DNA from: Steroidobacteraceae bacterium
GTDB lineage: Bacteria > Pseudomonadota > Gammaproteobacteria > Steroidobacterales > Steroidobacteraceae
Direction of reading: 5' to 3'
Assembly (NCBI GenBank): GCA_035524595.1
Contig: DATKOP010000044.1
Span: 10,792 to 74,791 of the forward strand
DNA length: 64,000 nt
Shown here: piece after piece, positions 5,641 through 44,842 of the stretch
Layout of the letters: each line of letters opens with the position of its first letter
Position numbering within the stretch: the first letter of the stretch is position 1
Notes under the pieces: model-generated
Databases searched by the model: none
Told to the model about the DNA's origin: nothing
What the model saw: the letters and a program-made list of their open reading frames with translations, nothing else
Program-made: the position numbers and the translations under genes

Positions 5641-6309
5641 GTGCGAATTCACACCCGGGCCGCCCTCACCCTGATCCTGCTCGGCTGCGCCTCGCTGGCG
5701 CAGGCCGTCGCCATCACCTTCGCCGGCTGCGTGCCGGGCGACCTCAGCGGGCTCACGACCTGCCAGTCGAACGCGACGGTCGTCGACTTCAACAGTTCCA
5801 TCGGCGCTCTGCCGGGCGGCTACACGGGCACGGGCGGCGCCGGCGGCGTGGTCGTCGTCGGCTCGCTCGGCGGCCAGTTCGCGCAGCCGGGCGGCGCCGG
5901 CAGCGACCTGACCCCGTACCTGACGACGCCGACGCCCGGCAACAACGCGGTCGGCGAGGTGACGGCCACGATCGGCGGCAGCTACAACTACTTCGGCCTC
6001 TACTGGGGCTCGATGGACGCCTACAACACGCTCAGCTTCTACAACCAGGGCACGCTCATCGGCACGCTGACCGGCGCGCAGGTGATCGCGGCCGACACGG
6101 CACTCGGCAACCAGACCGCGGCCGGCTCGAACCAGTACGTGAACCTCTGGTTCGGCAGCCAGAGCTTCGACACCGTGGTGTTCGACTCGACGAACTTCGC
6201 CTTCGAGTCCGACAACCACGCCTATGCCCGGGTCCCGGAGCCGGCGACGCTCGGCCTGTTGGGCCTCGGGCTCGCGGCACTCGGCCTCGGCCGCCGCCGC
6301 CGGCGCTGA
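5641..6309 (+). CDS. PEP-CTERM sorting-domain secreted protein
   Basis: GTG 5641 lies 10 nt after AAGGAG (5625-5630). Signal peptide ending LAQA, Gly/Thr-rich body, C-terminal 'VPEPATLGLLGLGLAALGLGRRRRR' (PEP motif + TM + Arg cluster). Confidence 0.8.
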   Translation: MRIHTRAALTLILLGCASLAQAVAITFAGCVPGDLSGLTTCQSNATVVDFNSSIGALPGGYTGTGGAGGVVVVGSLGGQFAQPGGAGSDLTPYLTTPTPGNNAVGEVTATIGGSYNYFGLYWGSMDAYNTLSFYNQGTLIGTLTGAQVIAADTALGNQTAAGSNQYVNLWFGSQSFDTVVFDSTNFAFESDNHAYARVPEPATLGLLGLGLAALGLGRRRRR

Positions 6310-6328
6310 CCTGCACGCGGGCGCGCCC

Positions 6329-6358
6329 GCAGGACCCCGCGGTGCGGCGGGGTCCTGC
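6329..6358. terminator. bidirectional terminator-like hairpin between convergent genes
   Basis: Perfect 12-bp stem GCAGGACCCCGC (6329-6340) / GCGGGGTCCTGC (6347-6358) with a 6-nt loop, between the PEP-CTERM stop (6309) and the receptor stop (6401). Weak T tract (TTCA). Confidence 0.55.
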
Positions 6359-6400
6359 TTCATGGCGCCCGCGCGCGCCGGGGCGCGGCTGCGGCGCCGC

Positions 6401-8374
6401 TCAGCGGTCGATCGAGACGCTCAGCAGGAAGCGCCGGCCGAGCTCGGGGATCACCTGGCCGAAGGGCGTCAGGTGCAGGCCGCGCGCGTCGCTGAGATTG
6501 AGCGCATCGAGGCGCACCGTGAAGGGGTGATTGTGCAGCCGTGACTCGTAGCGCAGGCCCGCGCTCGCGGTGGTGAGCGGCGGCAGCGTCGCGTCGTTGG
6601 CGAGGGTCGCGGTGCGCTCCGAGAGGCGCGCGAGCTGCACCGAGCCCGCGAACGGCCGCAGCACGGGCGGCGCGTAGTCGACATTGAGCGACAGCGTCAG
6701 CGGCACCGGGCCGATCGGCACCGAGCCGAGCCCGGCGGCGGGCTCGGTGCGGTCGAGGTGCGGCTTCAGCCACACGCCGCCCGCCACGACCGTGAGCCCG
6801 GAGCCACCCGCGTAGGCGAGCGAGCTCTCGAGGCCGCGGTGGCGGACGGTGCCGAGCGCGCGGTAGGTGCCGGTCTCGTCGGTGTTGAAGTACACCTTCT
6901 GGATCTCGAAGCCGCCGAGCACCAGCGACAGGCCGTTCGCGGGCGCGTAGCGCAGGCCGCCGTCGACCTGGCGCGAGCGCGTCGCGGGCGGCGGCTGGCC
7001 GGGCACCGCGGAGTCGACCGGCGCGGGCGCCGAGTCCTCGAGGCCCTGCAGGAAGCTGCCGTACAGCGTCACCGCGTGCCCGGCCTCGACCGTGAACTTG
7101 AGGCTCGCGAGCCACGGCGTCGTCAGCTCGCCCTGCGCGATGCCGGGCGTCTCAATGACGGTGCGCCGGTAGTGGCTCTTCAGCAGCCCGACGCCGAGCG
7201 TGCCGACGCCCTTCCAGCGCTCCTCGTACACGGCGCCGAGGTCGAGCTGGCGGGTCTCGTCGAGGTAGCTCGGGATTGGTGGCATGTCGAAGGGCGGCGG
7301 GCAGGTCTCAGGCGGCGTGGTCGGCGGACCGGAGTCCAGCGTCGTCGTGCCGTAGCACGCCAGCTGGTCGCCGCCGTAGGCGTGGTCGGCGCTGCGGCCG
7401 CGCAGCGAGAGGTCGAGCCGGCGCGTGTGCAGCTCGCCGCCGAACTCGCGCGCGAGGCGGACCTCGCCCGAGGTCGAGCTCGAGGTCAGCGGCGGCAGCC
7501 GGTCGAGCCGGTGATCGACCGTGCGATCGGGCAGGACCGAGAGGTATTCCTCGATGTCGGAGGCGCGGTCCGCCTCGCGCGCGTGGAACAGGCCGGCGGT
7601 CAGCGTCCAGCGCGCGCCGAGGCCCTGGTGGACCACGACGCCGAGCGTCGTCGCGTGCCAGCCGTAGCTCGTGAACGGCTGCGAGGCGAGCGCGCGCGCA
7701 TCGAACAGCGGCGGCACCTCGACGCCGTCGCTGAACACGAACGGCAGCAGCGCATGCTGGCTGCCGTTCATCGTCGACCAGAACGGCACGATCTCGGTGC
7801 GCGCCGACGGGCGCCAGCGCAGCACCACCCCGGCGCTCGTGTTGCCGGCCGCGCGCGCCTGGTCGCCGGCGAAGTCCTTGCTGTAGCCGAGGCAGGCGGA
7901 ACCGGCGAGGTGGTCGCCGAGCGGCGTCTGGCCCTCGATCAGCGCGGTCGCCTCCTGGTACGGACCGCGGGTCGCGACCGCGCCGAGCGCGGTCGCATCG
8001 CCCGGCGTGAACAGCCTCAGGTCCGCGATGCCGGTCGGCGCGGGGAAGCTGTACGACTGCGCCGTGATGCCGATCCGCATCACGGTCGCGCGCGCGGTGC
8101 AGGGACCGACGTAGGCGCTCGGGTTGTCGAAATAGAGGCCCTCGATGCGCAGGTTGCCGGCCTGCTGCGGGCTGAAGCCGCGCGCGTCCGCGATCGAGTA
8201 GAGGCCGATCGCCTGGTTGCCGACCGCGAGCCCGAAGGCGTCCTCGGCGACCGAGACGGCGTTCTCCTGCACCGGCTCCGCGGCGGCGGCGGCCGCGGCG
8301 AGCGCCAGCACGAGCGCGCTGAGCGGCGCGCGCGCGCGCCGCCGCGCGCCCGCCCGCGATCCGCCCCCGCTCAC
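6401..8374 (-). CDS. TonB-dependent-receptor-like outer-membrane beta-barrel protein
   Basis: Start placed at GTG 8374 ([34 protein letters not shown] signal peptide). Plug-like 'GNQAIGLYSIADARGFSPQQAGNLRIEGLYFD', then about 550 aa of barrel-type sequence. The rest of the 1385-aa track ORF upstream is shadow reading over the neighbouring gene. Confidence 0.6.
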   Translation of the reverse strand: MSGGGSRAGARRRARAPLSALVLALAAAAAAAEPVQENAVSVAEDAFGLAVGNQAIGLYSIADARGFSPQQAGNLRIEGLYFDNPSAYVGPCTARATVMRIGITAQSYSFPAPTGIADLRLFTPGDATALGAVATRGPYQEATALIEGQTPLGDHLAGSACLGYSKDFAGDQARAAGNTSAGVVLRWRPSARTEIVPFWSTMNGSQHALLPFVFSDGVEVPPLFDARALASQPFTSYGWHATTLGVVVHQGLGARWTLTAGLFHAREADRASDIEEYLSVLPDRTVDHRLDRLPPLTSSSTSGEVRLAREFGGELHTRRLDLSLRGRSADHAYGGDQLACYGTTTLDSGPPTTPPETCPPPFDMPPIPSYLDETRQLDLGAVYEERWKGVGTLGVGLLKSHYRRTVIETPGIAQGELTTPWLASLKFTVEAGHAVTLYGSFLQGLEDSAPAPVDSAVPGQPPPATRSRQVDGGLRYAPANGLSLVLGGFEIQKVYFNTDETGTYRALGTVRHRGLESSLAYAGGSGLTVVAGGVWLKPHLDRTEPAAGLGSVPIGPVPLTLSLNVDYAPPVLRPFAGSVQLARLSERTATLANDATLPPLTTASAGLRYESRLHNHPFTVRLDALNLSDARGLHLTPFGQVIPELGRRFLLSVSIDR

Positions 8375-23108: not shown

Positions 23109-23172
23109 GGGCTCTCCCGGTCTTGGTATACGTTATAGTTATCAGTGACTTAAGAGACGTTCATCACGCAGA

Positions 23173-23988
23173 TTATCGATCGAGGGCGGCAAGCTCTAGC
23201 CCGAAGAACCGCGCCGCGGTGCGCGAGGTCGCGAGCGCGAGCGCGGCGACGCTCTCGCCGCGCGCCTCGGCGACCGCGCGGCAGACCTCGGCAAGGTACA
23301 TCGGTTCGTTGCGGCGCGTGGCGGGCTTCGGCCGCAGCGTGCGCGGCAGCAGGTACGGCCCGTCGGTCTCGAGCATCAGGCGCTCCGCCGGGATCGCGCG
23401 CACCACCTCGACGAGGTGGCGGCCGCGGCGCTCGTCGCAGATCCAGCCGGTGATGCCGATCGCGAGCCCGAGGGCGAGGTATTCCTCGGCCTCGGCGCGC
23501 GTGCCGGTGAAGCAGTGCGCGACCGCCCGCGGCAGGCGCGCGCCGCAGGCCCTGAGCGCCGCGACGAAGTCGGCGTGCGCGTCGCGCTGGTGCAGGAACA
23601 GCGGCTTGCCGGTCTCGATCGCGAGCGCGAGCTGGCGCTCGAACGCGGCGCGCTGCGCCGGCCGCGGCGAGTAGTCGCGGAAGTAGTCGAGCCCGCACTC
23701 GCCGATCGCGACCACGGCCGGGTCGGCGGCCAGCGACCGCAGCCGCTCGAGCGCCCGCTCATCGAGCTCGAGCGCATGGTGCGGGTGGACGCCGGCGGTG
23801 GCCGAGAGGAAGCCCGGCTCGGCCGCCGCGAGCGCGGCGGCCGCGGCCGAGGAGGCGACCGACGAGCCGGTCACGACGAGGTGCACGAGCCCGGCGCGGC
23901 GCGCGCGCGCCAGCACCGCGTCGCGGTCGGCGTCGAAGCTGTCGTGGGCGAGGTTGATGCCGATGTCGACGAGCGGCGGGGCGGGCAT
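23173..23988 (-). CDS. tatD: TatD-family metal-dependent hydrolase/DNase
   Basis: ATG 23988. 'LVDIGINLAHDSF', 'GVHPHHA', 'AIGECGLDYFRD', 'LFLHQRDAH'. Confidence 0.88.
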   Translation of the reverse strand: MPAPPLVDIGINLAHDSFDADRDAVLARARRAGLVHLVVTGSSVASSAAAAALAAAEPGFLSATAGVHPHHALELDERALERLRSLAADPAVVAIGECGLDYFRDYSPRPAQRAAFERQLALAIETGKPLFLHQRDAHADFVAALRACGARLPRAVAHCFTGTRAEAEEYLALGLAIGITGWICDERRGRHLVEVVRAIPAERLMLETDGPYLLPRTLRPKPATRRNEPMYLAEVCRAVAEARGESVAALALATSRTAARFFGLELAALDR

Positions 23989-37060: not shown

Positions 37061-37945
37061 ATGGCCGCACCCGGCGAGCCGCCCGACCCCGAAGCGACCG
37101 AGCCGGCCGGCACGGTCGCCGTCGACGTCTCCGACGAGCCGGTGCACTGGGACGTGCCGCAGGCGCAGACCTACGGCGGCTACCTCGACCTCGCGCGCCT
37201 GCTCGGCGCGCAGCATCCGCGCTCGCCGGAGCACGACGAGATGCTGTTCATCATCGTGCACCAGACGAGCGAGCTGTGGATGAAGCTGTGCCTGCACGAG
37301 CTGAAGGCGGCAATCGCCTGCATCCGCCGCGACGAGCTGGCGCCGTGCTTCAAGATGCTGACCCGGGTCGGCCACATCCAGCGCCAGCTGGTGCACGCCT
37401 GGGACGTGCTGGCGACGCTGACGCCGTTCGACTACTCGAGCTTCCGCAACCAGCTGGGCCGAGCCTCGGGCTTCCAGTCGTGGCAGTACCGGCTGCTCGA
37501 GTTCACGATCGGCAACAAGAACCGCGACCTGATCGCGGTGCACCGCGCCGATCCCGCCGCCTACCAGCTGCTCGAGCAGGCGCTCGTGGCGCCGTCGCTG
37601 TACGACGAGACGCTGCGGCTCTTGTCGCGGCGCGGCTTCGAGATCCCGGAGGCGCTGCTCGACCGCGACTTTTCCGCGCCCTACGTCGCACACAAGCGGG
37701 TCACGGCGGCCTGGCTCGCGGTCTACCACAGCATCGACGCGCACTGGGACCTCTACGAGCTCGCCGAGAAGCTCGTCGACCTCGACCACCGCTTCCAGCT
37801 GTGGCGCTTCGCACACATGAAGACCGTCGAGCGCATCATCGGCTACAAGCGCGGCACCGGCGGCACGAGCGGCGTCGCCTACCTCGCCAAGGCGCTGGAG
37901 CTGCGCTTCTTCCCGGAGCTCTGGTCGGCGCGCACCTCGATGTAG
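37061..37945 (+). CDS. kynA: tryptophan 2,3-dioxygenase
   Basis: 'YGGYLDLARLLGAQHPRSPEHDEMLFIIVHQTSELWMKL', 'SGFQSWQYRLLEF', '[11 protein letters not shown]'. Confidence 0.9.
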   Translation: MAAPGEPPDPEATEPAGTVAVDVSDEPVHWDVPQAQTYGGYLDLARLLGAQHPRSPEHDEMLFIIVHQTSELWMKLCLHELKAAIACIRRDELAPCFKMLTRVGHIQRQLVHAWDVLATLTPFDYSSFRNQLGRASGFQSWQYRLLEFTIGNKNRDLIAVHRADPAAYQLLEQALVAPSLYDETLRLLSRRGFEIPEALLDRDFSAPYVAHKRVTAAWLAVYHSIDAHWDLYELAEKLVDLDHRFQLWRFAHMKTVERIIGYKRGTGGTSGVAYLAKALELRFFPELWSARTSM

Positions 37946-38571
37946 CCGGCGGCCGCGGCCGCCGCCGCGCGGCGGCGGCGCCAGGCGCCGAGCGCGCGCG
38001 GCAGCATCAGCAGCGCAAACACGGCCGCGTAGACGAGCGGCTCGCGCACGTCGCGCTTCACCTGCCAGTAGAAGTGCCAGCAGCCGAGCAGCGTCGCCGG
38101 GTAGATCGCGTAGTGCAGCCGCTGCCAGCGGCGCCCGAGCCGGCGCTGCGCCGCGTGCGTCGAGGTCGCGGCGAGCGGCGCGAGCAGCACGAAGGCCGCG
38201 GCCCCGAGCGTGATCCAGCGGCGCTTGGCGACGTCCTCGAGCAGCACGCGCCAGTCGAAGCCCTGGTCGACCGCGAAGTACATCGCGAGGTGCAGCGACA
38301 GGTAGCAGAACGCAAACAGGCCGAGCATGCGCCGGTACAGCAGCCAGCGCGGCTGGCCGGTCAGCCGCCGCAGCGGCGAGACCGCCAGCGTCGCGAGCAG
38401 GAGCCTCAGCGCCCACAGGCCGAGCGTGTCGGTGATCGCGGCCACCGGGTTCGCGCCGAGGCCGAGGCCGCCGAGCCCGAAGGCGCGCACCGCGAGGTTG
38501 GCGAGCGGCAGCAGCAGGGCGACGAACAGCGCCGTCTTGCCGGCGCGCCGCCACCAGAAGTCGGCGCTCAG
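37879..38571 (-). CDS. msrQ: protein-methionine-sulfoxide reductase haem-binding subunit MsrQ (YedZ); start uncertain
   Basis: Follows msrP with stop/start overlap. '[32 protein letters not shown]', '[17 protein letters not shown]', '[19 protein letters not shown]'. Only a CTG (38571) is available in frame near the expected N-terminus. The C-terminal tail overlaps the kynA 3' end. Confidence 0.75.
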
Positions 38572-39521
38572 AAGTTCCTCCCGAGGTCCATGCCGCGGTA
38601 CAGGTCCGCGACCTCGCGCGCGTAGCCGTTGAACGGCTGGGTCGGCTGGCGCGGCGCGAACACGCCGGCGCCGATGCGCCGCTCGGTCTTCTGGCTCCAG
38701 CGCGGATGGTCCACCGCCGGGTTGACGTTGGCGTAGAAGCCGTACTCCCCGGGCGCCGCGCGGTTCCAGCTCGTGGCCGGCATGCGCTCGGTGAAGTCGA
38801 TGCGCACGATCGCCTTGATGCTCTTGAAGCCGTACTTCCACGGCACCACGAGCCGCAGCGGCGCGCCGTTCTGGTTCGGCAGCACCCGGCCGTAGAGCCC
38901 GACCGCGAGCAGCGCGAGCGGGTGCATCGCCTCGTCGATCCGCAGGCCCTCGGCGTATGGCCAGTCGAGCACCGGCCAGCGCTGGCCGGGCATCTGCGCG
39001 GGATCGCGCAGCGTCGTGAAGGCGACGTAGCGCGCCTTCGAGGTCGGCCGGAAGCGCTTCAGCACCTCGCCGAGCGGCACGCCGACCCACGGGATCACCA
39101 TCGACCAGGCCTCGACGCAGCGCAGGCGGTAGACGCGCTCCTCGAGCGCGTGCGGCTTCAGCAGCTCCTCGAGCGGCACGCTGCCCTTCGCCTCGCACTC
39201 GCCGCCGATCGCGACGGACCAGGGCTGCACGCGCAGCCGGCCGGCGTTGGCCGCCGGGTCGGCCTTGTCGGTGCCGAACTCGTAGTAGTTGTTGTAGCCG
39301 GTCACGTCCTCCCAGGAGTTCGCCGCCTCGCTGGTGCTGAGGTCGGCGTTGCGGCGAAAGCTGAGGGCGGTGCCGGTCGGGCCGGTGGTCCCGAGCGCGG
39401 CCGGGGCGGCCGTCGCGGCGGCGAGCGCGAGGGCGCCGCCGAGGAAGCGCCGCCGCCCGGCATAGACCTCGGGCGGCGTGATCTCGGACGGGCGGATGGC
39501 GGCTGGGCGGCGTAGCAGCAT
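38568..39521 (-). CDS. msrP: protein-methionine-sulfoxide reductase catalytic (molybdopterin) subunit MsrP (YedY)
   Basis: ATG 39521. Tat signal '[23 protein letters not shown]'. '[11 protein letters not shown]', '[19 protein letters not shown]', '[13 protein letters not shown]'. Confidence 0.9.
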
Positions 39522-39629
39522 GGGCGGCTCCGAAAGCGGGCGGGGCGGCGGACGCCCGCTGGCGCCCGGCCACACTCTCAATCAGACCGGGCGGGACGCC
39601 CGAAAATTTCCGGCGCCCCGGCGGGGAGG

Positions 39630-39971
39630 CTAGCGCGGCCGGCGGCGGCGCCCGGCCGCGCCGGCGGCGCGCGGTGCAGGCTGCGGGCGGATGGCGAGGC
39701 GCAGGCCGAACGCGCGCAGCACGGTCGCGACGGTGCGCATCTCGGGATTCCCGGCCGGCGACAGCACCTTGTAGAGGAAGGTGCGATTCAGGCCGGTGGC
39801 GGCGGCGAGGCGGCCGACGCCGCCCGCGCGGCGCGCCAGCGCGCGCAGCGCATCGAGCACCTCCGCGTCAGCCGCGCGCTCGAGCAGGCCGTCGAGCTCG
39901 CGCGCGATCGATGCGAGTTCCGCCGGCGCGAACGGCGGGCTGGACGTGCGGCTGGCGGGCGTCTTCTTCAT
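39630..39971 (-). CDS. HigA/'addiction-module antidote'-type HTH DNA-binding protein (no cognate toxin gene)
   Basis: 113 aa. 'LDALRALARRAGGVGRLAAATGLNRTFLYKVLSPAGNPEMRTVATVLRAFGLRLAI' matches the antidote-protein HTH pattern. Its ATG overlaps the stop of the upstream membrane-protein gene (ATGA). Confidence 0.65.
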   Translation of the reverse strand: MKKTPASRTSSPPFAPAELASIARELDGLLERAADAEVLDALRALARRAGGVGRLAAATGLNRTFLYKVLSPAGNPEMRTVATVLRAFGLRLAIRPQPAPRAAGAAGRRRRPR

Positions 39972-40573
39972 CAGTGGATGCGCCCCGGCGCCTGCGGCTG
40001 ATCGCGGCCGCCGTCGGCCGGCTGCGGTGCGGCGGGCCGGGGACGGGACGCGGGCTGGCGGCGGCGGCTGCGTTCCTCGCCGCGGCCGCGGCCGATCGCG
40101 ACGTGCGCGACCACGAGCACGACCGCGCCGACGCCGATCAGCCAGTGCGTGAGGCTGATCAGCGGGCGCGCCTGCTCGCCGCCGAAGTAGTAGAGCGCGT
40201 AGCCGCTGCCGGCCAGCAGCGCCAGCGCCGTCGCGAGCGTGACGCCCGAGGCGCGGTTGCGACCGAAGGGCCAGGCGCGGCTGACGTGCGTCGTGAGCAG
40301 GGAGCCGAGCGCGACCAGGCTCAGCATGGCGGCGAGGCCGTGCAGCCGCAGCCACCAGGACTCGAGCGGGTGCGGGCCCTCGCCCCATTCGGTCGCGACG
40401 CGCACGAAGTAGTGGAACACGAGCCACAGCGCGCCGCTCGCCGCGAGCAGGCCGAACGCCGCGAAGACGAAGCGCCGCTGCCAGCGCTCGAGCCGGACCG
40501 GGGCGCCGCCGGCCGGCGGTGGCGCAGGACGGCGCCCGGCATGGCCGCGACGCGCGGCGTGGCGCCCGCTCAT
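39971..40573 (-). CDS. four-TM, histidine-rich membrane protein (DUF4405 / cytochrome b-like electron conduit, inferred)
   Basis: 200 aa. Four hydrophobic helices with His in TM1 (VFHYF), TM2 (LRLHG...TTHV) and TM4 (LTHW...VAHV). ATGA overlaps on both sides. Confidence 0.55.
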   Translation of the reverse strand: MSGRHAARRGHAGRRPAPPPAGGAPVRLERWQRRFVFAAFGLLAASGALWLVFHYFVRVATEWGEGPHPLESWWLRLHGLAAMLSLVALGSLLTTHVSRAWPFGRNRASGVTLATALALLAGSGYALYYFGGEQARPLISLTHWLIGVGAVVLVVAHVAIGRGRGEERSRRRQPASRPRPAAPQPADGGRDQPQAPGRIH

Positions 40574-41448
40574 GGCCGCACCCGCCGGTCGCGGCCGGCC
40601 GCGACGACCCGGGCGGCGGCGCCGAACGCGGCCAGCGCCGGGTGGCGCTCGTCGCCGCTCACGGCGACCACCTTGGTGAGCGCGTCCGCGGTCGCGCAGT
40701 CCGGTGCGACGACGCTGACGCTGAGGCCCTCGCCGCAGCAGGCGCCGCTCGTCGGGTCGATGCAGGCCGTCATCGCTGCTCCAGTCTCGGCACCGGGCTG
40801 CCGGTCGGGATAGTGGGCCGAGGTCGCGAGCGCCGCATCGTGGAGAGTCACGAGCGGCACGACCCGTGCCGGGTCCGCGGGCAGGCGCACGCGGATGGTC
40901 TCGGCGCATGCGCCGAAAACGCGCAGGTCGCCGCCGGCGTTGACCGTCGCCGCGGCGACGCCGTGGTCCCGCAGCGCCTCCAGCGCCCGGTCGACCGCGA
41001 AGCCCTTGGCGATGCCGCCGAGGTCGAGGAGCAGCGGCCCGCGGTAGCGGACCCGGCCGCCCTCGAGCAGCTGGAGGCGCTCGCGACTGCCGCCGTCGCC
41101 CGGCGGTCCCGCCGGCGTCGCGACGCCGGGCGGCGCGGGCAGCCGGCCGGCGCGCACCAGCGCCGGGGCCACCGCGCAGTCGAAGGCGCCGGCCGAGGCG
41201 GCCGCGACCTCGAGCGCGCGGCTGAGCACCGCGTAGGTCCACGGCGAGACCGCGACCGGCGCGCGCGCCGCGCCGCGGTTGAGCGCGCTCAGCTCGCTCG
41301 CCGGATCGTGAAAGCTCATCAGCGCCTGCACGCGCGCGACGGCGGCGAAGGCGGCGTCGCAGGCGGCGTGCGCGTCGGTACAGGCGCCGCCGTCCCTGAT
41401 GCGGATCGCGACCAGCGTGCCGAGCCAGGGTTGTGCGCGCGCCAGCAT
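40570..41448 (-). CDS. apbE: FAD:protein FMN transferase (ApbE family)
   Basis: 'FHDPASELSALN', 'LLLDLGGIAKGFAVDRALEAL', 'VNAGGDLRVFG'. Confidence 0.85.
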   Translation of the reverse strand: MLARAQPWLGTLVAIRIRDGGACTDAHAACDAAFAAVARVQALMSFHDPASELSALNRGAARAPVAVSPWTYAVLSRALEVAAASAGAFDCAVAPALVRAGRLPAPPGVATPAGPPGDGGSRERLQLLEGGRVRYRGPLLLDLGGIAKGFAVDRALEALRDHGVAAATVNAGGDLRVFGACAETIRVRLPADPARVVPLVTLHDAALATSAHYPDRQPGAETGAAMTACIDPTSGACCGEGLSVSVVAPDCATADALTKVVAVSGDERHPALAAFGAAARVVAAGRDRRVRP

Positions 41449-41449
41449 C

Positions 41450-41962
41450 TCAGTCCCTGAGCGCGACCGCGTACAGCGCGAGGATGCGGTTGACGCCGTC
41501 GGTGACGTGGCTGCACGACAGCGTCGCGCCGCTGATGTTCTGGATGTCGCGGTTGATGCCGAGCGCGGTGCGCTTGCCGACGAACTGCCGCCGCCAGCGC
41601 TCGTTGCGGATCTCGTAACCGTAGGATTCGCGGTAGGTCAGGATCTCGAGCTGGCGGACGCTGCCGTCGGCGTTCAGCCCGACCGCGTAGCTGATCAGCT
41701 CGTGCTTGCCGAGAACCTCGTCGACGACGAAGAAGCCGCCGCCCGCCACGCGCCAGACGTGCCAGGGGCGCGGCGGCGCCATGCCGCCGAGCGCGCGCGC
41801 GAGCTCCGCCTGCTGGGCGGCGCTGAGCGCCACCGGCAGCGCGGTCAGGGTCGCGCCCGGGAACATCAGCTGCTGCGCCTGCTCGACCGACAGGTAGGTC
41901 GTCGCGTAGACCGAGGTCGACACCGCGGCGACCGGCAGCCAGACCCAGGACGCGGGGCGCAC
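41450..41962 (-). CDS. periplasmic FMN_bind-domain protein (ApbE substrate type)
   Basis: Signal peptide MRPASWVWLPVAAVSTSVYA. 'INRDIQNISGATLSCSHVT' contains the [S/T]GA[T/S] flavinylation motif of NqrC/RnfG/PplA-type domains. Confidence 0.75.
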   Translation of the reverse strand: MRPASWVWLPVAAVSTSVYATTYLSVEQAQQLMFPGATLTALPVALSAAQQAELARALGGMAPPRPWHVWRVAGGGFFVVDEVLGKHELISYAVGLNADGSVRQLEILTYRESYGYEIRNERWRRQFVGKRTALGINRDIQNISGATLSCSHVTDGVNRILALYAVALRD

Positions 41963-41965
41963 CGC

Positions 41966-43279
41966 TCAACCCGCCACGCCGCGCAGCGCGGCGAAGACGC
42001 CGAAGCCCGCGGTCAGGAGGATCGTCAGCCCCACCAGCGCGGCGTAGCGGCCGCCGAGGCGGTGCGGCGGCGGCAGGCGCCGCGCCAGCAGGTACAGGAA
42101 GCCGAGCACGATCGGCAGCAACAGCGCGTTCATGACCTGCACCGCGACGCTGAGCTCGACGAGGTTGACGCCGGAGGTCACCAAGAGCGCGCCGGCCGCG
42201 AGCGCGGCGGTGTAGATCCCGTAGAACCACGGCGCCTCGCGCGGCGCGTGCGCCAGCGAGTGCTTGACCCCGAGCACCTCGCCGAGCGTGCGCGCGGCGG
42301 TCAGCGTGACGACGATGGTCGCGACCAGCGCCGAGCCGGTCATGCCGAGGGCGAACAGCACGCGGCCGGTGCGCTCGCCGAGGAAGGGCGTGATCGCCTC
42401 GGCGATCTGCTGCACGGTGTCGAGCGCGGCGCGGCGGCCGCCGCCGAGCGTCGCGGCGGTCGCGACCAGCACGCCCGCCATGATCACCTGCGTGACCACC
42501 GCGCCGACGGCGGTGTCCCAGCGCGCGGCGCGCAGGTCCGCGACCGTCAGCCCCTTCTCGACGACGGCCGACTGCTGGTAGAAGACCATCCACGGCATCA
42601 CCACGGCGCCGATGTTCGCGGCGACCAGGTACAGGTACCCGGGCTCGCGCCAGGGCACGCTGCCGAGGCCCGCCGCCATCGCCGCGGGGTCCGGCTGCGC
42701 CTGCCAGGCGACCACCAGGAACACGAGCTCGAAGGCGCCGATCGCCATCGCGATGCGCTCCACCGAGAGGTAGGAGCCGGTGTAGGCCATCAGCGTCAGG
42801 CCGCCGACCACGACCGCCATCGTCAGCCACGCCGGCACGCCGAACAGCAGCCCGACGCCGGCGAGCCCGCTCAGCTCGCTGAGCAGCGCGCCGACGCAGG
42901 CGAGCACCAGCGTCGCGACCGAGAGCCAGGCCCAGCCGCGGCCGAAGTGCAGCCGGATCAGCTCGCCGTGGCCCCGGCCCGAGACCACCCCGAGCCTGAC
43001 CGTCAGCTCCTGCACGACGTACAGGATCGGCACCAGCACGAGCTGCAGCAGCAGCAGCCGGTAGCCCCACTGCGCGCCGCTCTGCGCGGCCGTGATGATG
43101 CTGCCGGCGTCGGTGTCGGCCAGCATCACGACGATGCCCGGCCCGGCCACGAGCGCGAAGCGGCGGGCGCGCGCGCCGAGCGACGGCATCAGCGACGGGC
43201 GGCCGGCCGCGGCCGGCACGGCCACCCCGTCCGGCGCGCGGCGAGCGTCGTGCGGTAGTTCAAAAACTGTATCCGACAC
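41966..43279 (-). CDS. NRAMP-family metal transporter, divergent metal-site motifs
   Basis: 11-12 TM permease. 'GPGIVVMLADTDAGSIITAAQSGAQWGY' and 'NIGAVVMPWMVFYQQS' align with the NRAMP TM1 (DPGN) and TM6 (MPH) regions but read DAGS/MPW. The GTG 43279 start overlaps the porin end; an alternative ATG lies at 43188. Confidence 0.75.
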   Translation of the reverse strand: MSDTVFELPHDARRAPDGVAVPAAAGRPSLMPSLGARARRFALVAGPGIVVMLADTDAGSIITAAQSGAQWGYRLLLLQLVLVPILYVVQELTVRLGVVSGRGHGELIRLHFGRGWAWLSVATLVLACVGALLSELSGLAGVGLLFGVPAWLTMAVVVGGLTLMAYTGSYLSVERIAMAIGAFELVFLVVAWQAQPDPAAMAAGLGSVPWREPGYLYLVAANIGAVVMPWMVFYQQSAVVEKGLTVADLRAARWDTAVGAVVTQVIMAGVLVATAATLGGGRRAALDTVQQIAEAITPFLGERTGRVLFALGMTGSALVATIVVTLTAARTLGEVLGVKHSLAHAPREAPWFYGIYTAALAAGALLVTSGVNLVELSVAVQVMNALLLPIVLGFLYLLARRLPPPHRLGGRYAALVGLTILLTAGFGVFAALRGVAG

Positions 43280-44705
43280 CGAGGTTGAGCCCGTCCTTGC
43301 CGTTGTACGTCTGGTTGCGCTGGTAGTCCACCTTCAGCACCACGCCGCCGCTGATGAACAGGCTCGCGCCGAGCGTCCACACCTTGTCGTCCGGCAGCAC
43401 GACCGCACCGTCGGCGGCCGTCAGGCTGCCGAAGGCGGCCGCGTCGTTGTACTGCTCGTAGCGCAGGAACGGGTCGAGCGCGACGCGGTCGCCGCGCCAC
43501 AGGTGGTAGGCGGCCTGCAGGTAGCCGCCGCGAAACAGCGACGGCACGAGCGTCGGCGACTCGACCGACCCGAGATAGAGCTGGTTGAGCGCCTCGGTGC
43601 GGCTGATCGTGCCGCGGGCGTAGACCGCGGCGAGGTCCCAGCCGGCGACCGTGTAGCGTGCGTGCGCGTCCCACAGGACGAGGCGCGAGTCGTTGCCGGC
43701 GAAGCCCGGCGTCTGCTGCCCGACCTTGCCGCTGAAGAGCGCGGCACCGAGCTGCAGACCCGGCCAGCCCCGCCAGTTGAGCGCGCCGTAGCCGCTGAGA
43801 TCGCGGGCGGCGGCGAACTGGCCCTCGCCGTGAATCGCCTGCAGCGGGCCCTCGTCGCGGCCCTCGGTCGAGGTCGGGTCCCACTTGCTGAGGTTGAAGC
43901 CGGTGGTCAGCCCGACCTCCCAGCTGAGCGCCGCCTCGGTGGTGCCGGACACGCCGAGGCCGACCTCGCGCCAGGTGCTCGGGATCAGGACGCGCTCCAC
44001 CTGGTTGCGGAACACACCGTAGTAGGCGGTCGGCTCGTGGTTCTGGTTGATGAGCCCGAACGGCATCAGGAAGAGGCCGGCCTTGGCGCGCAGCCCGTTG
44101 CGGAACTCGTGCTCGACCCAGAGCTGCTCGACCTCCGCTTCGCCTTGGTCGGAGGCCGAGGTGACCGCGTGCTCCCACTCCCATTCGGCGACCATCTTGG
44201 TGGTGTCGTCGAAGCGGTGCTGCATGCCGATCACCGCCCGCTGCACGTCGGCGGTGGCGCCGGCGGGCGTCTCGGAGGGGCGGTTGTAGCCGATCTCGCC
44301 GTAGCTCGAGACCGTCGTGGTCGCGGCCCAGTCGGCGAGGGCGCTCGATCGGCTCGCCGACTCCGCGACCGCCTGCGCCTGCGCGACCGCCTGCGCCTGC
44401 TGCACGGCCTCGGCGGCCTGGGCGGTCTGCGCGAGCTCGAGGCGCCGCACCTTCGACTCGAGCTCGGCGTTCTGCCGCTCGAGCGCCTCGATCTTCTGCG
44501 CGAGTGATTCGAGGGTCACCGCCGAGGCGCGGGCGGGGGCGGCGGCGACGCTCGCGAGCAGCAGCAGGGCGATCGCGCCGAGGCGCAGCGGATTCGCCGG
44601 CGAGGACGGGCGCAGGATGCGGGCGCCTGAGGCCGGTCGCGGCCCGTCGCAGGCACCGATGGACGCGGACAGGGGCGCGGCGGCGCCGGTGAGACGATTC
44701 CGCAT
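43260..44705 (-). CDS. outer-membrane porin-like beta-barrel with N-terminal coiled coil
   Basis: Signal peptide ...AAPARASA. Coiled-coil 'LESLAQKIEALERQNAELESKVRRLE'. Barrel-type alternating sequence ending 'LNLGVGYSF' (C-terminal Phe). Confidence 0.7.
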   Translation of the reverse strand: MRNRLTGAAAPLSASIGACDGPRPASGARILRPSSPANPLRLGAIALLLLASVAAAPARASAVTLESLAQKIEALERQNAELESKVRRLELAQTAQAAEAVQQAQAVAQAQAVAESASRSSALADWAATTTVSSYGEIGYNRPSETPAGATADVQRAVIGMQHRFDDTTKMVAEWEWEHAVTSASDQGEAEVEQLWVEHEFRNGLRAKAGLFLMPFGLINQNHEPTAYYGVFRNQVERVLIPSTWREVGLGVSGTTEAALSWEVGLTTGFNLSKWDPTSTEGRDEGPLQAIHGEGQFAAARDLSGYGALNWRGWPGLQLGAALFSGKVGQQTPGFAGNDSRLVLWDAHARYTVAGWDLAAVYARGTISRTEALNQLYLGSVESPTLVPSLFRGGYLQAAYHLWRGDRVALDPFLRYEQYNDAAAFGSLTAADGAVVLPDDKVWTLGASLFISGGVVLKVDYQRNQTYNGKDGLNLGVGYSF

Positions 44706-44739
44706 CGAGAACCTCCCTGAAGCCAGTGGGAGGATCTTA

Positions 44740-44758
44740 AATGAGAATGGGTCTCATT
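44740..44758. promoter_or_regulatory. Fur-box-like palindrome upstream of the porin-NRAMP operon
   Basis: AATGAGA-ATGGG-TCTCATT, perfect 7-bp arms, 35-53 nt upstream of the porin ATG in a strikingly AT-rich spacer. Resembles the AT-rich 19-bp Fur/Mur-type operators. Confidence 0.45.
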
Positions 44759-44767
44759 ACCATATGG

Positions 44768-44782
44768 GAATAATACCTATTC
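44768..44782. promoter_or_regulatory. second short palindrome (GAATA-N5-TATTC) in the same leader
   Basis: GAATAATACCTATTC, 10 nt from the first palindrome. Could be a second operator half, or simply promoter AT-richness. Confidence 0.25.
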
Positions 44783-44842
44783 GTATTTGTCATAACGAGC
44801 GCCGGCGAGCCCGGCCGGGCGCCGTTGCCGCGGGGCGCCCGC

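Follow-up and report, generated by a model that had tools for sequence, protein, structure and literature searches.

The window analysed here, a 64-kb stretch of DNA from a Steroidobacteraceae bacterium, carries on its minus strand, between positions 39630 and 44705, six tightly packed ORFs with almost no spacers, which respectively code for an outer-membrane porin, an SLC11/NRAMP-family permease, an exported FMN_bind protein, an ApbE-family flavin transferase, a His-rich membrane protein with four transmembrane helices (4-TM protein) and a small HTH protein (Table 1). All six were confirmed where an earlier reading of this DNA from its letters alone (the sequence-only reading) had placed them, and most of the junctions it described are also seen: 3 nt (41963-41965) separate the NRAMP stop from the FMN_bind GTG, a single nucleotide (41449) lies between the FMN_bind stop and the ApbE ATG, and an ATGA overlap at 40570-40573 joins the ApbE and 4-TM genes. 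The 4-TM and HTH genes do meet at 39969-39973, as had been proposed, but the sequence there is TGATG with 1 nt shared and not ATGA. A 20-nt overlap of the porin with an NRAMP gene starting at a GTG at 43279 had also been claimed; public gene callers place the NRAMP start 20 codons later (417 aa). The longer form is backed by its N-terminus VSDTVFE, which fits the conserved M[S/W]DT start of homologues, and by the gene call of a related contig (L096), which shows the identical 20-nt overlap. The motifs that had been quoted, NISGATLS and, for ApbE, DLGGIAKGFAVD, are both present in the sequence. Pfam searches with the porin (cut-off 0.01) and the 4-TM protein recovered no match above threshold.

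Table 1. Features of the locus, listed from the leader downstream (window coordinates).
Feature	Position	Strand	Details
Second AT-rich leader element ACAAATACGAATAGGTATTATTC	44768..44790	-	Conserved in relatives
Fur-box-like operator	44740..44761	-	37 nt upstream of porin ATG; palindrome overlapping consensus match
Outer-membrane porin, 481 aa	43260..44705	-	AF2 model, Foldseek
SLC11/NRAMP-family permease, 437 aa (alternative start 43219 = 417 aa)	41966..43279	-	Pfam Nramp 2.6e-67
Exported FMN_bind protein, 170 aa	41450..41962	-	Pfam FMN_bind 1.8e-09; Sec-type signal peptide ending VYA↓TT
ApbE-family flavin transferase, 292 aa	40570..41448	-	Pfam ApbE 4.7e-47
4-TM His-rich membrane protein, 200 aa	39971..40573	-	Five invariant His; AF2/Foldseek
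Small HTH protein, 113 aa	39630..39971	-	Pfam PF21716 5.5e-13, HigA-like dnstrm_HI1420 antitoxin family
MsrP (38568-39581) and MsrQ (~37879-38560)	37879..39581	-	Pfam Oxidored_molyb 2.6e-30, Ferric_reduct 6.9e-18

The FMN_bind protein scores 38.6 bits with the Pfam model (cut-off 22), and its predicted flavinylated residue, Thr147 (codon 41522-41524), lies within the NISGATLS motif, where A146 and S149 are invariant, as is T147 throughout the family. A profile of the family recovered RnfG (9eri_G, 1.7e-10; 7zc6_G, 2.4e-08) with the threonine in register, T147 falling on the TG[AS]T of RnfG, which bears out the equivalence proposed for its SGAT; scores with the NCBIfam RnfG/NqrC models are far under their cut-offs. 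The corresponding segment and domain of RnfG are located outside the cytoplasm in the Rnf and Nqr complexes. In 19 homologues of the FMN_bind protein a conserved AxA↓xQY junction is preceded by a short h-region, a configuration typical of signal peptidase I cleavage. The ApbE protein retains the motifs DLGGIAKG, NAGGDL, ATSA.Y and ADALTK and aligns from residue 7 onward with the Vibrio cholerae ApbE (6nxj, 1.3e-18), in which His257 is reported to be catalytically critical; the equivalent of this residue is absent, with C, P or A standing in its place. Neither a signal peptide nor a lipobox was detected in the window ApbE, and none of about 70 ApbE homologues from comparable cassettes has a hydrophobic N-terminus. 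Because the enzyme lacks both a signal peptide and the His257 equivalent while its presumed substrate bears a Sec signal, flavinylation in the periplasm is not straightforward and presents a topology puzzle.

This puzzle would disappear in an arrangement resembling NOX or Dcytb, with the FMN_bind leader as an uncleaved anchor and the flavin domain in the cytoplasm, where it would be flavinylated by the signal-less ApbE and pass electrons to the di-haem 4-TM protein, with Fe(III) being reduced directly at the outer haem of the latter. The lack of an ApbE signal peptide in every locus, an in-frame FMN_bind-ApbE fusion in one genome (L090) and the frequent want of net positive charge in the n-region of the leader all accord with such an arrangement; however, the short h-region and strictly conserved AxA↓xQY junction are signal peptidase I-like, the homologous RnfG segment and domain are non-cytoplasmic, and, with no NAD(P)H site in the FMN_bind domain, the arrangement would still want a donor on the cytoplasmic side. 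Its plausibility is raised by the existence of cytosolic ApbE enzymes whose substrates are likewise cytosolic (PMC12052999); on balance we regard it as rather improbable.

The His layout earlier read from the 4-TM protein holds, with H54 in TM1, H78 and H96 in TM2, and H143 and H157 in TM4, all invariant in 20 homologues. Its AF2 model (pLDDT 78.5) consists of four long helices, for which the top Foldseek matches in the PDB are cytochromes b6/b with a probability of 0.90-0.97, yet with an E-value of 0.13 and TM-scores of 0.42-0.47; no sequence match was found in the PDB. The Arg-rich N- and C-termini and TM2-3 loop suggest that these parts are cytoplasmic. The protein is predicted to be a di-haem b-type transmembrane electron conduit, in which H96/H157 would hold one b-haem near the cytoplasmic face and H78/H143, with H54 nearby, the other near the periplasmic face. 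It had been likened to both MsrQ and DUF4405: the former proposal is not supported, the hhalign probability to MsrQ being 0.4%, and the latter finds a marginal echo in sub-threshold matches to PF01292 (cytochrome b561) or DUF4405 in 7 of the 20 homologues. DUF4405 proteins adjoining apbE bind haem b (PMC11334425).

The permease belongs to the NRAMP family, as had been claimed, but to an NRMT-like clade and not to the canonical Mn/Fe transporters. Its NCBIfam MntH score is 91 bits against a cut-off of 430, its best solved relative is EleNRMT (7qia, 1e-46; DraNramp, 1e-20), like the NRMTs it has lost the proton-relay histidines, and proton coupling is probably absent as well; EleNRMT transports Mg2+ and Mn2+ without proton coupling (PMC8806188). 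With EleNRMT and CabNRMT (PMC8806188; PDB 7qia) it shares a DAG-type TM1, a P-W in place of P-H in TM6b and the loss of those histidines, but it differs from them in its binding-site signature, which is DxxS (TM1) and AxxM-PW (TM6) in place of DxxG-TxxA/T, so that the soft Met ligand has been retained; both the Asp and the Met of transition-metal NRAMPs are present. The Dxx[S/C]-AxxMPW signature, found in 49 of the full-length representatives at 50% identity, defines a large uncharacterised sister group of the Mg2+-transporting NRMTs. The relationship to a Mg2+/Mn2+ transporter and the missing histidines might be taken to mean that the permease is an NRMT proper, transporting Mg2+, and that its adjacency to the flavin module is mechanistically meaningless. 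This is very improbable, given that the NRMT signature is replaced by one keeping a thioether Met, which disfavours alkaline-earth ions (PMC8806188), and that in several lineages the gene is embedded in the operon with hardly any spacer.

The porin comprises a signal region, a long N-terminal coiled-coil helix and a 16-stranded barrel (helix 65-129 and 16 strands in the AF2 model, pLDDT 71). Foldseek relates it to OmpC, OmpF and OprP (E 3e-13, target TM-score 0.65-0.68), and its homologues give weak matches to Porin_4/Porin_O_P under the Pfam thresholds. While the 16-strand barrel is common to OprP/OprO and the general porins OmpC/OmpF, the long coiled coil sets the window porin apart from all of these, and invariant Glu/His clusters (EWEWEH, GEAEVEQ) stand in place of the Arg ladder. 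It is 30% identical to a Porin_O_P-like porin adjoining FeoB in another locus (L006).

Genomes of at least 276 species encode a homologue of the 4-TM protein; most of them are Betaproteobacteria and some are Gammaproteobacteria. Carriers of the FMN_bind-ApbE-4TM module are soil and water proteobacteria, with Sulfuriferula multivorans, Paraherbaspirillum soli and Collimonas among the cultured ones. We kept 80 loci for comparison, 68 of them flanked upstream by 3 kb or more and 56 flanked by that length on either side. FMN_bind is adjacent in 64 and ApbE in 61 of the 68, an outer-membrane protein lies upstream of the core in 47 of them, and FMN_bind and 4-TM genes occur without ApbE at L010, L012, L024, L028, L036 and L039. 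Judged from these neighbourhoods, the conserved core is FMN_bind-ApbE-4TM, usually accompanied by an outer-membrane protein. The complete porin-NRAMP-FMN_bind-ApbE-4TM order recurs in L011, L091/L092, L094, L095 and L096 with 47-86% protein identity, so that five genes of the proposed six-gene unit stand. The HTH gene does not: present in 2 of 56 loci, it is limited to the window and its close relatives L011, L095 and L096, and is missing from L091, L094 and 54 of the 56 other cassettes. No partner toxin was found for it at the locus, and it is a lineage-specific addition that may act as a local regulator. The MsrPQ genes follow directly downstream, with no terminator-like site found in between; this adjacency occurs only in the close relatives L011, L067, L095 and L096, and MsrPQ are neighbours outside the conserved cassette.

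FeoB is encoded in 23 of the 80 loci in three configurations, namely fused downstream of the 4-TM gene with overlapping stop and start, directly upstream, or convergent, and hemP is present in 18 of the 80. The 56 loci flanked on both sides include bacterioferritin (23), Bfd (23) and ExbB (10), with ExbBD being frequent, and 37 of them have at least one iron gene. In a Steroidobacteraceae-like clade, including the window, the NRAMP-like gene occupies the place that Feo has elsewhere. In about a third of the well-flanked cassettes no iron gene could be recognised within 9 kb, and copies of the permease with 81% identity stand alone in other Steroidobacteraceae. These observations, along with the presence of MsrPQ, another periplasmic redox system, immediately downstream, could also be accommodated if the redox module were a general supplier of periplasmic electrons, serving for example repair or detoxification enzymes or the export of electrons, that merely resides in Fur-regulated neighbourhoods with the NRAMP-like gene and porin as independent neighbours. 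We give this little credence, in view of the three independent Feo arrangements, one of them with stop/start overlap with the 4-TM gene, the placement of the NRAMP gene between porin and FMN_bind with junctions of 3-20 nt in a conserved five-gene order, and the failure of a search of the cluster for a conserved client oxidoreductase to yield any candidate.

The Fur-box-like palindromes that had been noticed in the AT-rich leader are supported by a 19-bp palindrome, AATGAGAcccATTCTCATT (44740-44758), overlapping a segment (44743-44761) that agrees at 14 of 19 positions with the Fur consensus GATAATGATAATCATTATC. Nowhere else in the window does a site reach 13/19, and none of 20 shuffles gave one of at least 14/19; L096 conserves the element and L091 has a similar one. 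In the 400 bp preceding the first gene, 26% of 65 cassettes contain a site scoring 14/19 or better, as against 1.9% of background windows, an enrichment of about 14-fold; the scoring used only the Escherichia coli consensus, and 74% of the cassettes have no such site by this measure. The GC content falls below 45% in just two stretches of the window, one of which contains the ACAAATACGAATAGGTATTATTC element. This element has a near-identical counterpart in L096 (TCAAATGCAAATAGGTATTACTC) and a related one in L091, and is possibly a second Fur-like site or a promoter element. No sigma-70 consensus match was found in the leader.

Fur-family boxes can also serve as Mur or Mn-responsive sites, and in Bradyrhizobium the porin MnoP is reportedly co-regulated with MntH, an outer-membrane channel and metal importer encoded together as in the window, a likeness of gene pairing alone. 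Since EleNRMT, the nearest relative of the permease to have been characterised, also carries Mn2+ besides Mg2+ (PMC8806188), the Steroidobacteraceae variant of the module might reduce Mn(III)/Mn(IV) or keep Mn reduced, with the NRMT-related permease importing Mn2+ that enters via a cation-selective porin. We consider a role in manganese uptake unlikely, as the module is accompanied in other lineages by iron-specific partners (FeoAB, Bfd/Bfr and hemP), the operator looks like a Fur box and no Mn-specific gene is found nearby.

Given the occurrence of the module beside iron-import genes in hundreds of proteobacteria, and its combination here with an NRAMP-type importer and a porin, it most likely serves to reduce ferric iron in the envelope for uptake. 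Hence, with a probability of about 0.6, we interpret the locus as a Fur-type, iron-starvation-controlled reductive iron-uptake operon, in which a conserved redox module is paired with an exchangeable importer. The metal-uptake function suggested by the sequence-only reading gains added support from the replacement of NRAMP by FeoAB in other lineages, the hemP, Bfd, Bfr and ExbBD neighbours and the upstream enrichment of Fur-like sites. In such an operon Fe(III), free or chelated, would enter via the dedicated acidic porin, while the 4-TM protein would move electrons, probably from quinol, outward over the inner membrane to the small exported FMN_bind protein, whose FMN would be linked to Thr147 by a phosphoester bond installed by the co-encoded ApbE. 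The flavoprotein would then reduce the Fe(III), and the resulting Fe(II) would be taken in by the NRAMP-family permease, with FeoAB in the equivalent cluster position in other lineages.

Several parts of this proposed system are reminiscent of known ones. RnfG and NqrC likewise combine an FMN_bind domain with an N-terminal export or anchor segment, an [S/T]GA[S/T] threonine in register and an ApbE encoded alongside; the window protein differs in appearing to be cleaved, soluble and periplasmic, and its cluster lacks the other subunits of RNF or Na+-NQR. In mammals the cytochrome b561 ferric reductase Dcytb reduces Fe(III) outside the cell and DMT1 (SLC11A2/NRAMP2) imports the Fe(II). The resemblance to this pair is one of functional logic alone, a di-haem cytochrome sending electrons outward and an SLC11-family permease importing Fe(II), whereas the window additionally has a covalent-flavin carrier and a porin, and its permease comes from the NRMT-related branch. 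In the flavin-based extracellular electron transfer of the Listeria type (PplA/FmnB/EetAB/Ndh2; PMC8238504) an ApbE-type enzyme similarly flavinylates an extracytosolic FMN_bind protein and ferric iron is reduced outside the cytoplasm, but the membrane route is Ndh2/DMK/EetAB, and that system is respiratory and not assimilatory, Gram-positive, and without porin or importer in the cluster. Further close parallels are with flavinylation clusters containing membrane cytochromes and ferrous-iron transporters, which have been proposed to be assimilatory iron reductases (PMC8238504); comparative genomics has linked MsrQ-like, PepSY-like and DUF4405 flavinylation-associated cytochromes to ferrous-iron transporters (PMC8238504, PMC11334425), with no mention of an Nramp or Feo association in the main text of either paper. 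These share with the window an ApbE, an exported FMN_bind substrate, a His-rich membrane protein of multi-haem type and an adjacent Fe(II) importer. The window differs from them in that its membrane protein belongs to a distinct 4-TM family, a signal peptide is lacking from its ApbE, FeoAB or an NRMT-like NRAMP serve as importers in place of VIT1 or FTR1, and the cluster includes a dedicated outer-membrane protein.

All six minus-strand ORFs that the sequence-only reading had grouped into one operon (39630-44705) are present at the coordinates it gave, and the junctions between them are as it described, with the single exception of the overlap between the genes for the HTH protein and the 4-TM protein (a His-rich membrane protein of 200 residues), which is TGATG and not ATGA. 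The GC content of the genome is 74%, and NCBI entries from a public Steroidobacteraceae MAG match the NRAMP and 4-TM proteins with 100% identity. The overlap of the porin and NRAMP genes requires a GTG start at 43279, and the public gene calls begin the NRAMP 20 codons further on. Since the N-terminus of the longer form (VSDTVFE) resembles a recurrent M[S/W]DT start among its homologues, and since an identical 20-nt overlap is called in a related contig (L096; handles of this form denote the compared loci or contigs), the GTG codon is likely to be the correct start. Pfam assigns the Nramp, FMN_bind and ApbE domains and an HTH domain of the dnstrm_HI1420 (HigA-like antitoxin) family, while the same scan recovered no family above threshold for the porin or the 4-TM protein.

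Features of the operon and its flanks (positions in the window)
Feature	Position	Strand	Details
MsrP-MsrQ	37879-39581	minus	directly downstream of the operon
HTH gene, HigA-like (dnstrm_HI1420)	39630-39971	minus	domain 49 bits vs 27; overlaps the 4-TM stop codon
ApbE	40570-41448	minus	PF02424, 161 bits vs 25.6
Permease	41966-43279	minus	Pfam Nramp, 2.6e-67
Porin	43260-44705	minus	AF2 pLDDT 71; N-terminal helix (residues 65-129) and 16 strands
Fur-box-like site	44743-44761		14/19 match; embedded in palindrome AATGAGAcccATTCTCATT
Second AT-rich element	44768-44790		beside the Fur-like site

The 4-TM protein was chosen as the search query as it is the least understood component of the operon. A scan of one genome per species recovered 276 genomes with a homologue, and the 80 loci that were kept derive mostly from Thiobacillus, Sulfuriferula, Hydrogenophilales, Sideroxydans, Burkholderiales, Collimonas and Paraherbaspirillum, along with some Gammaproteobacteria, among them another Steroidobacteraceae and a Nevskiaceae. 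These loci were annotated by tblastn with the window proteins and reference neighbours as queries. Among the 68 whose upstream flank spans at least 3 kb, ApbE lies directly upstream of the 4-TM gene in 61 and FMN_bind lies upstream of it in 64, while an outer-membrane protein of any kind is found upstream in 47, with one of the DUF6662 type in 38 and a homologue of the window porin in 11. A further porin from the same superfamily is frequently located just downstream. In six loci (L010, L012, L024, L028, L036 and L039) FMN_bind adjoins the 4-TM gene without ApbE, indicating that the minimal partnership is that of the flavoprotein and the 4-TM protein. The full order porin-NRAMP-FMN_bind-ApbE-4TM recurs in L011, L091/L092, L094, L095 and L096, the individual genes sharing 47-86% identity at the protein level. 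Two of the 80 loci (L071 and L087) come from bins labelled Hyphomicrobiaceae and Verrucomicrobia and carry betaproteobacterial-looking cassettes, representing either contaminated bins or horizontal transfer of the cassette.

The gene upstream of the HTH gene is that of the 4-TM protein, and a HI1419/RelE-type toxin partner is absent. This orphan HTH gene is kept only in L011, L095 and L096, which are also the only NRAMP-variant loci combining it with MsrPQ. The HTH gene and MsrP were found in just 2 of the 56 loci flanked by 3 kb or more on either side, and the two are therefore traits of close relatives rather than parts of a conserved system. The placement of MsrP-MsrQ after the operon brings together two periplasmic redox systems that are each built on a membrane cytochrome but are unrelated to one another, an adjacency again retained only in close relatives. 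No terminator-like site was found between the operon and MsrP-MsrQ, and scans for sigma-70 promoters and terminators yielded nothing useful.

The cassette is associated with iron genes. Among the 80 loci, 23 carry FeoB, in one of three arrangements: FeoA-FeoB directly downstream of the 4-TM gene (with a stop/start overlap in L006), FeoB directly upstream of the gene for the outer-membrane protein, and FeoAB convergent to the cassette; hemP was recorded in 18. Every ORF of the loci was also clustered in an unbiased manner and scanned against Pfam, and the recurrent neighbours so recovered were counted over the 56 well-flanked loci. Bacterioferritin and the ferredoxin Bfd each occur in 23 of these, TonB-like/ExbB/ExbD genes in 10, and at least one iron gene in 37. 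Many cassettes of Thiobacillus and Hydrogenophilales (L006, L020, L030, L035, L080 and others) sit within larger iron islands that contain a TonB-dependent receptor, TonB-like/ExbB/ExbD genes, Bfd, bacterioferritin and a CDF cation-efflux gene. A less likely rival explanation is that the cassette serves periplasmic redox chemistry in general, with no connection to metal uptake.

Of 65 loci, 17 have a sequence that agrees with the E. coli Fur consensus at 14 or more of its 19 positions in the 400 bp ahead of the first cassette gene, a 14-fold enrichment over the background of 1.9% in other 430-bp windows of the same loci. The Fur-box-like palindromes that had been proposed for the leader of the operon are borne out by a site that is the only one of at least 13/19 in the 64 kb, with none of at least 14/19 arising in 20 shuffles, and which together with the neighbouring AT-rich element is conserved in L096 and recognizable in L091. 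These observations point to induction of the operon by iron starvation, with the Fur-like site as its putative operator. The sole other stretch of the window with a GC content below 45% (23121-23180) carries a weak 12/19 Fur-like match and is flanked by unrelated genes, one M20-peptidase-like and one TatD-like.

The FMN_bind domain (PF04205; residues 85-161; 38.6 bits against a cut-off of 22) contains an NISGAT147LS motif that is invariant in 19 homologues. A profile of this family recovers RnfG (9eri_G, 1.7e-10; 7zc6_G, 2.4e-08), and in the profile alignment Thr147 is in register with the TG[AS]T motif of RnfG (...ITGSTITS / ...ITGATITS). The earlier equation of the SGAT threonine with the RnfG-type flavinylation position thus stands, and Thr147 is the predicted site of covalent FMN attachment. 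All members of the family possess a short hydrophobic leader with a conserved AxA|xQY junction, which resembles a Sec signal, with an often uncharged n-region. In L090, on a 2.1-Mb contig of a long-read Gammaproteobacteria MAG, FMN_bind and ApbE are read in one continuous frame of 459 aa, joined by a short Arg-rich linker (L090:7601-8980), which is either a genuine fusion or the result of a lost stop codon or assembly error.

The ApbE proteins of 68 cassettes conserve the motifs of the FAD/Mg site (DLGGIAKG, NAGGDL, ATSA.Y and ADALTK), and the position of the catalytic His257 of the Vibrio cholerae ApbE is occupied by Cys in the window protein and by Pro/Ala in the family consensus. The window protein has no extension ahead of the first β-strand of the mature fold, aligning with mature V. 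cholerae ApbE from residue 7, and across about 70 loci no signal peptide, lipobox or hydrophobic N-terminus was detected. A longer N-terminus is ruled out as no earlier start codon follows the in-frame stop upstream of the ORF, and the upstream extensions seen in other loci are Arg-rich out-of-frame artefacts. Thus, a predicted cytosolic ApbE would be faced with a predicted exported FMN_bind substrate, posing a puzzle as to the compartment of flavinylation, given that cytosolic ApbEs have been reported only with cytosolic substrates (PMC12052999). If the reductive reading of the operon is right, such a signal-less ApbE subfamily with an exported substrate, which is open to direct testing, would challenge the usual view of the site of flavinylation. 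This paradox would be resolved by a NOX/Dcytb-like topology, in which the flavin domain lies inside, but such a topology, a less likely rival, conflicts with both the cleavage-type leader and the homology to RnfG.

The 4-TM homologues, which are about 40-66% identical, share five invariant histidines (H54, H78, H96, H143 and H157), in agreement with the His layout that had been described from the window protein. Its AF2 model (pLDDT 78.5) displays four long helices and a conserved periplasmic hairpin; judging from the Arg-rich termini and the TM2-3 loop, H78 and H143 (along with H54) would lie near the outer face, and H96 and H157 near the inner face. The best PDB matches in Foldseek are to cytochrome b6/b, with probabilities of 0.90-0.97 but an E-value of 0.13 and TM-scores of 0.42-0.47. 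A search of the PDB with the family profile recovered nothing meaningful, leaving neither CybB/cyt b561 nor any other solved protein as a homologue by sequence. Of the two affinities originally offered, that to MsrQ is rejected, as the family profile and the window MsrQ are related with a probability of only 0.4% in hhalign, while that to DUF4405 (PF14358) persists only as weak similarity: the window protein scores 10.6 bits (E 0.89), below the gathering score of 26.7, and 7 of 20 homologues show weak matches to PF01292 or DUF4405 (best 7.5e-06 and 3.7e-04, respectively). As far as sequence and model allow, the most fitting description of the protein is therefore that of a new family, whose four-helix design resembles cytochrome b and features four to five histidines. 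By analogy with DUF4405, which has been demonstrated to bind haem b (PMC11334425), it may bind haem, and the family offers a testable new putative di-haem cytochrome. The NRxSG.. stretch of its cytoplasmic loop was also considered as a target of ApbE and rejected, as the Thr/Ser position is not conserved.

The permease contains the Nramp domain and was rightly termed atypical, lacking both the canonical MntH signature and the proton-pathway His. Its closest solved relative is the Mg2+/Mn2+ transporter EleNRMT (1e-46), with DraNramp at 1e-20. Canonical NRAMPs are typified by DxxN-A/CxxM with P-H and NRMTs by DxxG-TxxA/T (PMC8806188). In the window protein TM1 has DAGS (DxxS) and TM6 has AVVM (AxxM) followed by P-W, and in TM6b (MPWMVFYQQS) W and Q occupy the positions of the proton-pathway histidines. 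It is accordingly neither a canonical MntH, given the Asn to Ser replacement in TM1, the loss of the TM6b His and a score of 91 bits against the NCBIfam MntH cut-off of 430, nor an NRMT proper, given DxxS-AxxM in place of DxxG-TxxA/T. With 49 sequences, Dxx[S/C]-AxxMPW outnumbers every other signature when representatives are taken at 50% identity, and by this sequence criterion the group is a large uncharacterised sister clade of the NRMTs; neighbouring representatives carry another undescribed signature, DxxN-AxxN-PW. The retained Asp and thioether Met speak for a transition-metal substrate, and the loss of the TM6b His speaks against proton coupling. The Dxx[S/C]-AxxM-PW group, a sister clade of Mg2+-transporting NRMTs, is directly amenable to testing. 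Two less likely rival proposals are that the permease is a plain Mg2+ transporter adjacent by chance, or that the same scheme operates with manganese. Permeases of about 80% identity also occur singly in other Steroidobacteraceae, with none of the porin, FMN_bind and ApbE genes alongside (L001-L004, at about 6001-7254, and L093); the permease is therefore a mobile partner recruited into the cassette rather than an obligate one. Within the operon it occupies the locus where other lineages carry FeoAB, and no other finding argues as strongly as this exchange of Feo and NRAMP for a module that works with a divalent-metal importer.

The porin scores 14 bits against Pfam Porin_O_P, below the cut-off of 20.9, and shares 30% identity with the Porin_O_P-like porin of L006; its model matches OmpC/OmpF/OprP in Foldseek (E 3e-13 to 2e-11). 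Its N-terminal coiled coil shows weak sequence matches to trimeric coiled-coil peptides. Residues 169-200 present invariant alternating Glu/His (EWEWEH, GEAEVEQLWVEHE) on two adjacent predicted strands (E174, E176, E178, H179, E191, E193 and E198). These clusters may be an acidic counterpart of the arginine ladder of OprP, and they suggest that the porin is cation-selective.

Taken together, comparative genomics and inference from sequence and structure best support the reductive iron uptake first envisaged for this operon, with corrections to the HTH protein, permease, 4-TM protein and ApbE; we place its probability at roughly 60%. Under iron limitation the operon would be derepressed, and the 4-TM cytochrome would pass electrons outward from the membrane pool to the exported flavoprotein, which would then reduce Fe(III) entering via the dedicated porin. 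The resulting Fe(II) would be imported by the NRAMP-family permease in this operon and by FeoAB in other lineages. A far more speculative elaboration, which we regard as improbable, is that a cytosolic ApbE lacking His257 flavinylates the unfolded FMN_bind precursor before Sec export, so that periplasmic FAD would not be needed, and that the mature flavoprotein docks to or into the DUF6662 protein or the coiled-coil porin, reducing Fe(III) at or beyond the outer membrane and feeding the Met-containing NRMT-sister permease. Such a porin-coupled flavoprotein would be a flavin-based counterpart of the MtrAB porin-cytochrome conduit.

Méheust et al. 2021 (PMC8238504) and a 2024 mSystems paper (PMC11334425) established from genomics that ApbE/FMN_bind clusters pair with membrane cytochromes (MsrQ-like, PepSY-like and DUF4405), and in some cases with VIT1 or P19/FTR1 iron transporters. 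The main texts of these papers make no mention of Nramp, a Feo association, porins or the 4-TM family. Searches of the open full-text literature likewise found no account of ApbE flavinylation with Nramp, of ApbE with FeoB and FMN-binding, or of DUF6662. A flavinylated carrier acting with a membrane cytochrome in iron assimilation has already been proposed from genomics, and the current finding extends that proposal rather than establishing a new principle; the 4-TM family, the outer-membrane component, the exchange of Feo and NRAMP, the signal-less ApbE without His257 and the NRMT-sister permease are not described in the literature searched. If the reductive model is true, the module could account for a step that has been missing from iron uptake by aerobic Gram-negative bacteria, namely the reduction of Fe(III) that reaches the periplasm for Fe(II) importers of the Feo or NRAMP type. 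As a candidate for this step it would be widespread, since no fewer than 276 species carry it, among them Betaproteobacteria that oxidise sulfur and iron and Steroidobacteraceae from soil. The arrangement functionally parallels that of Dcytb and DMT1 in the mammalian gut.
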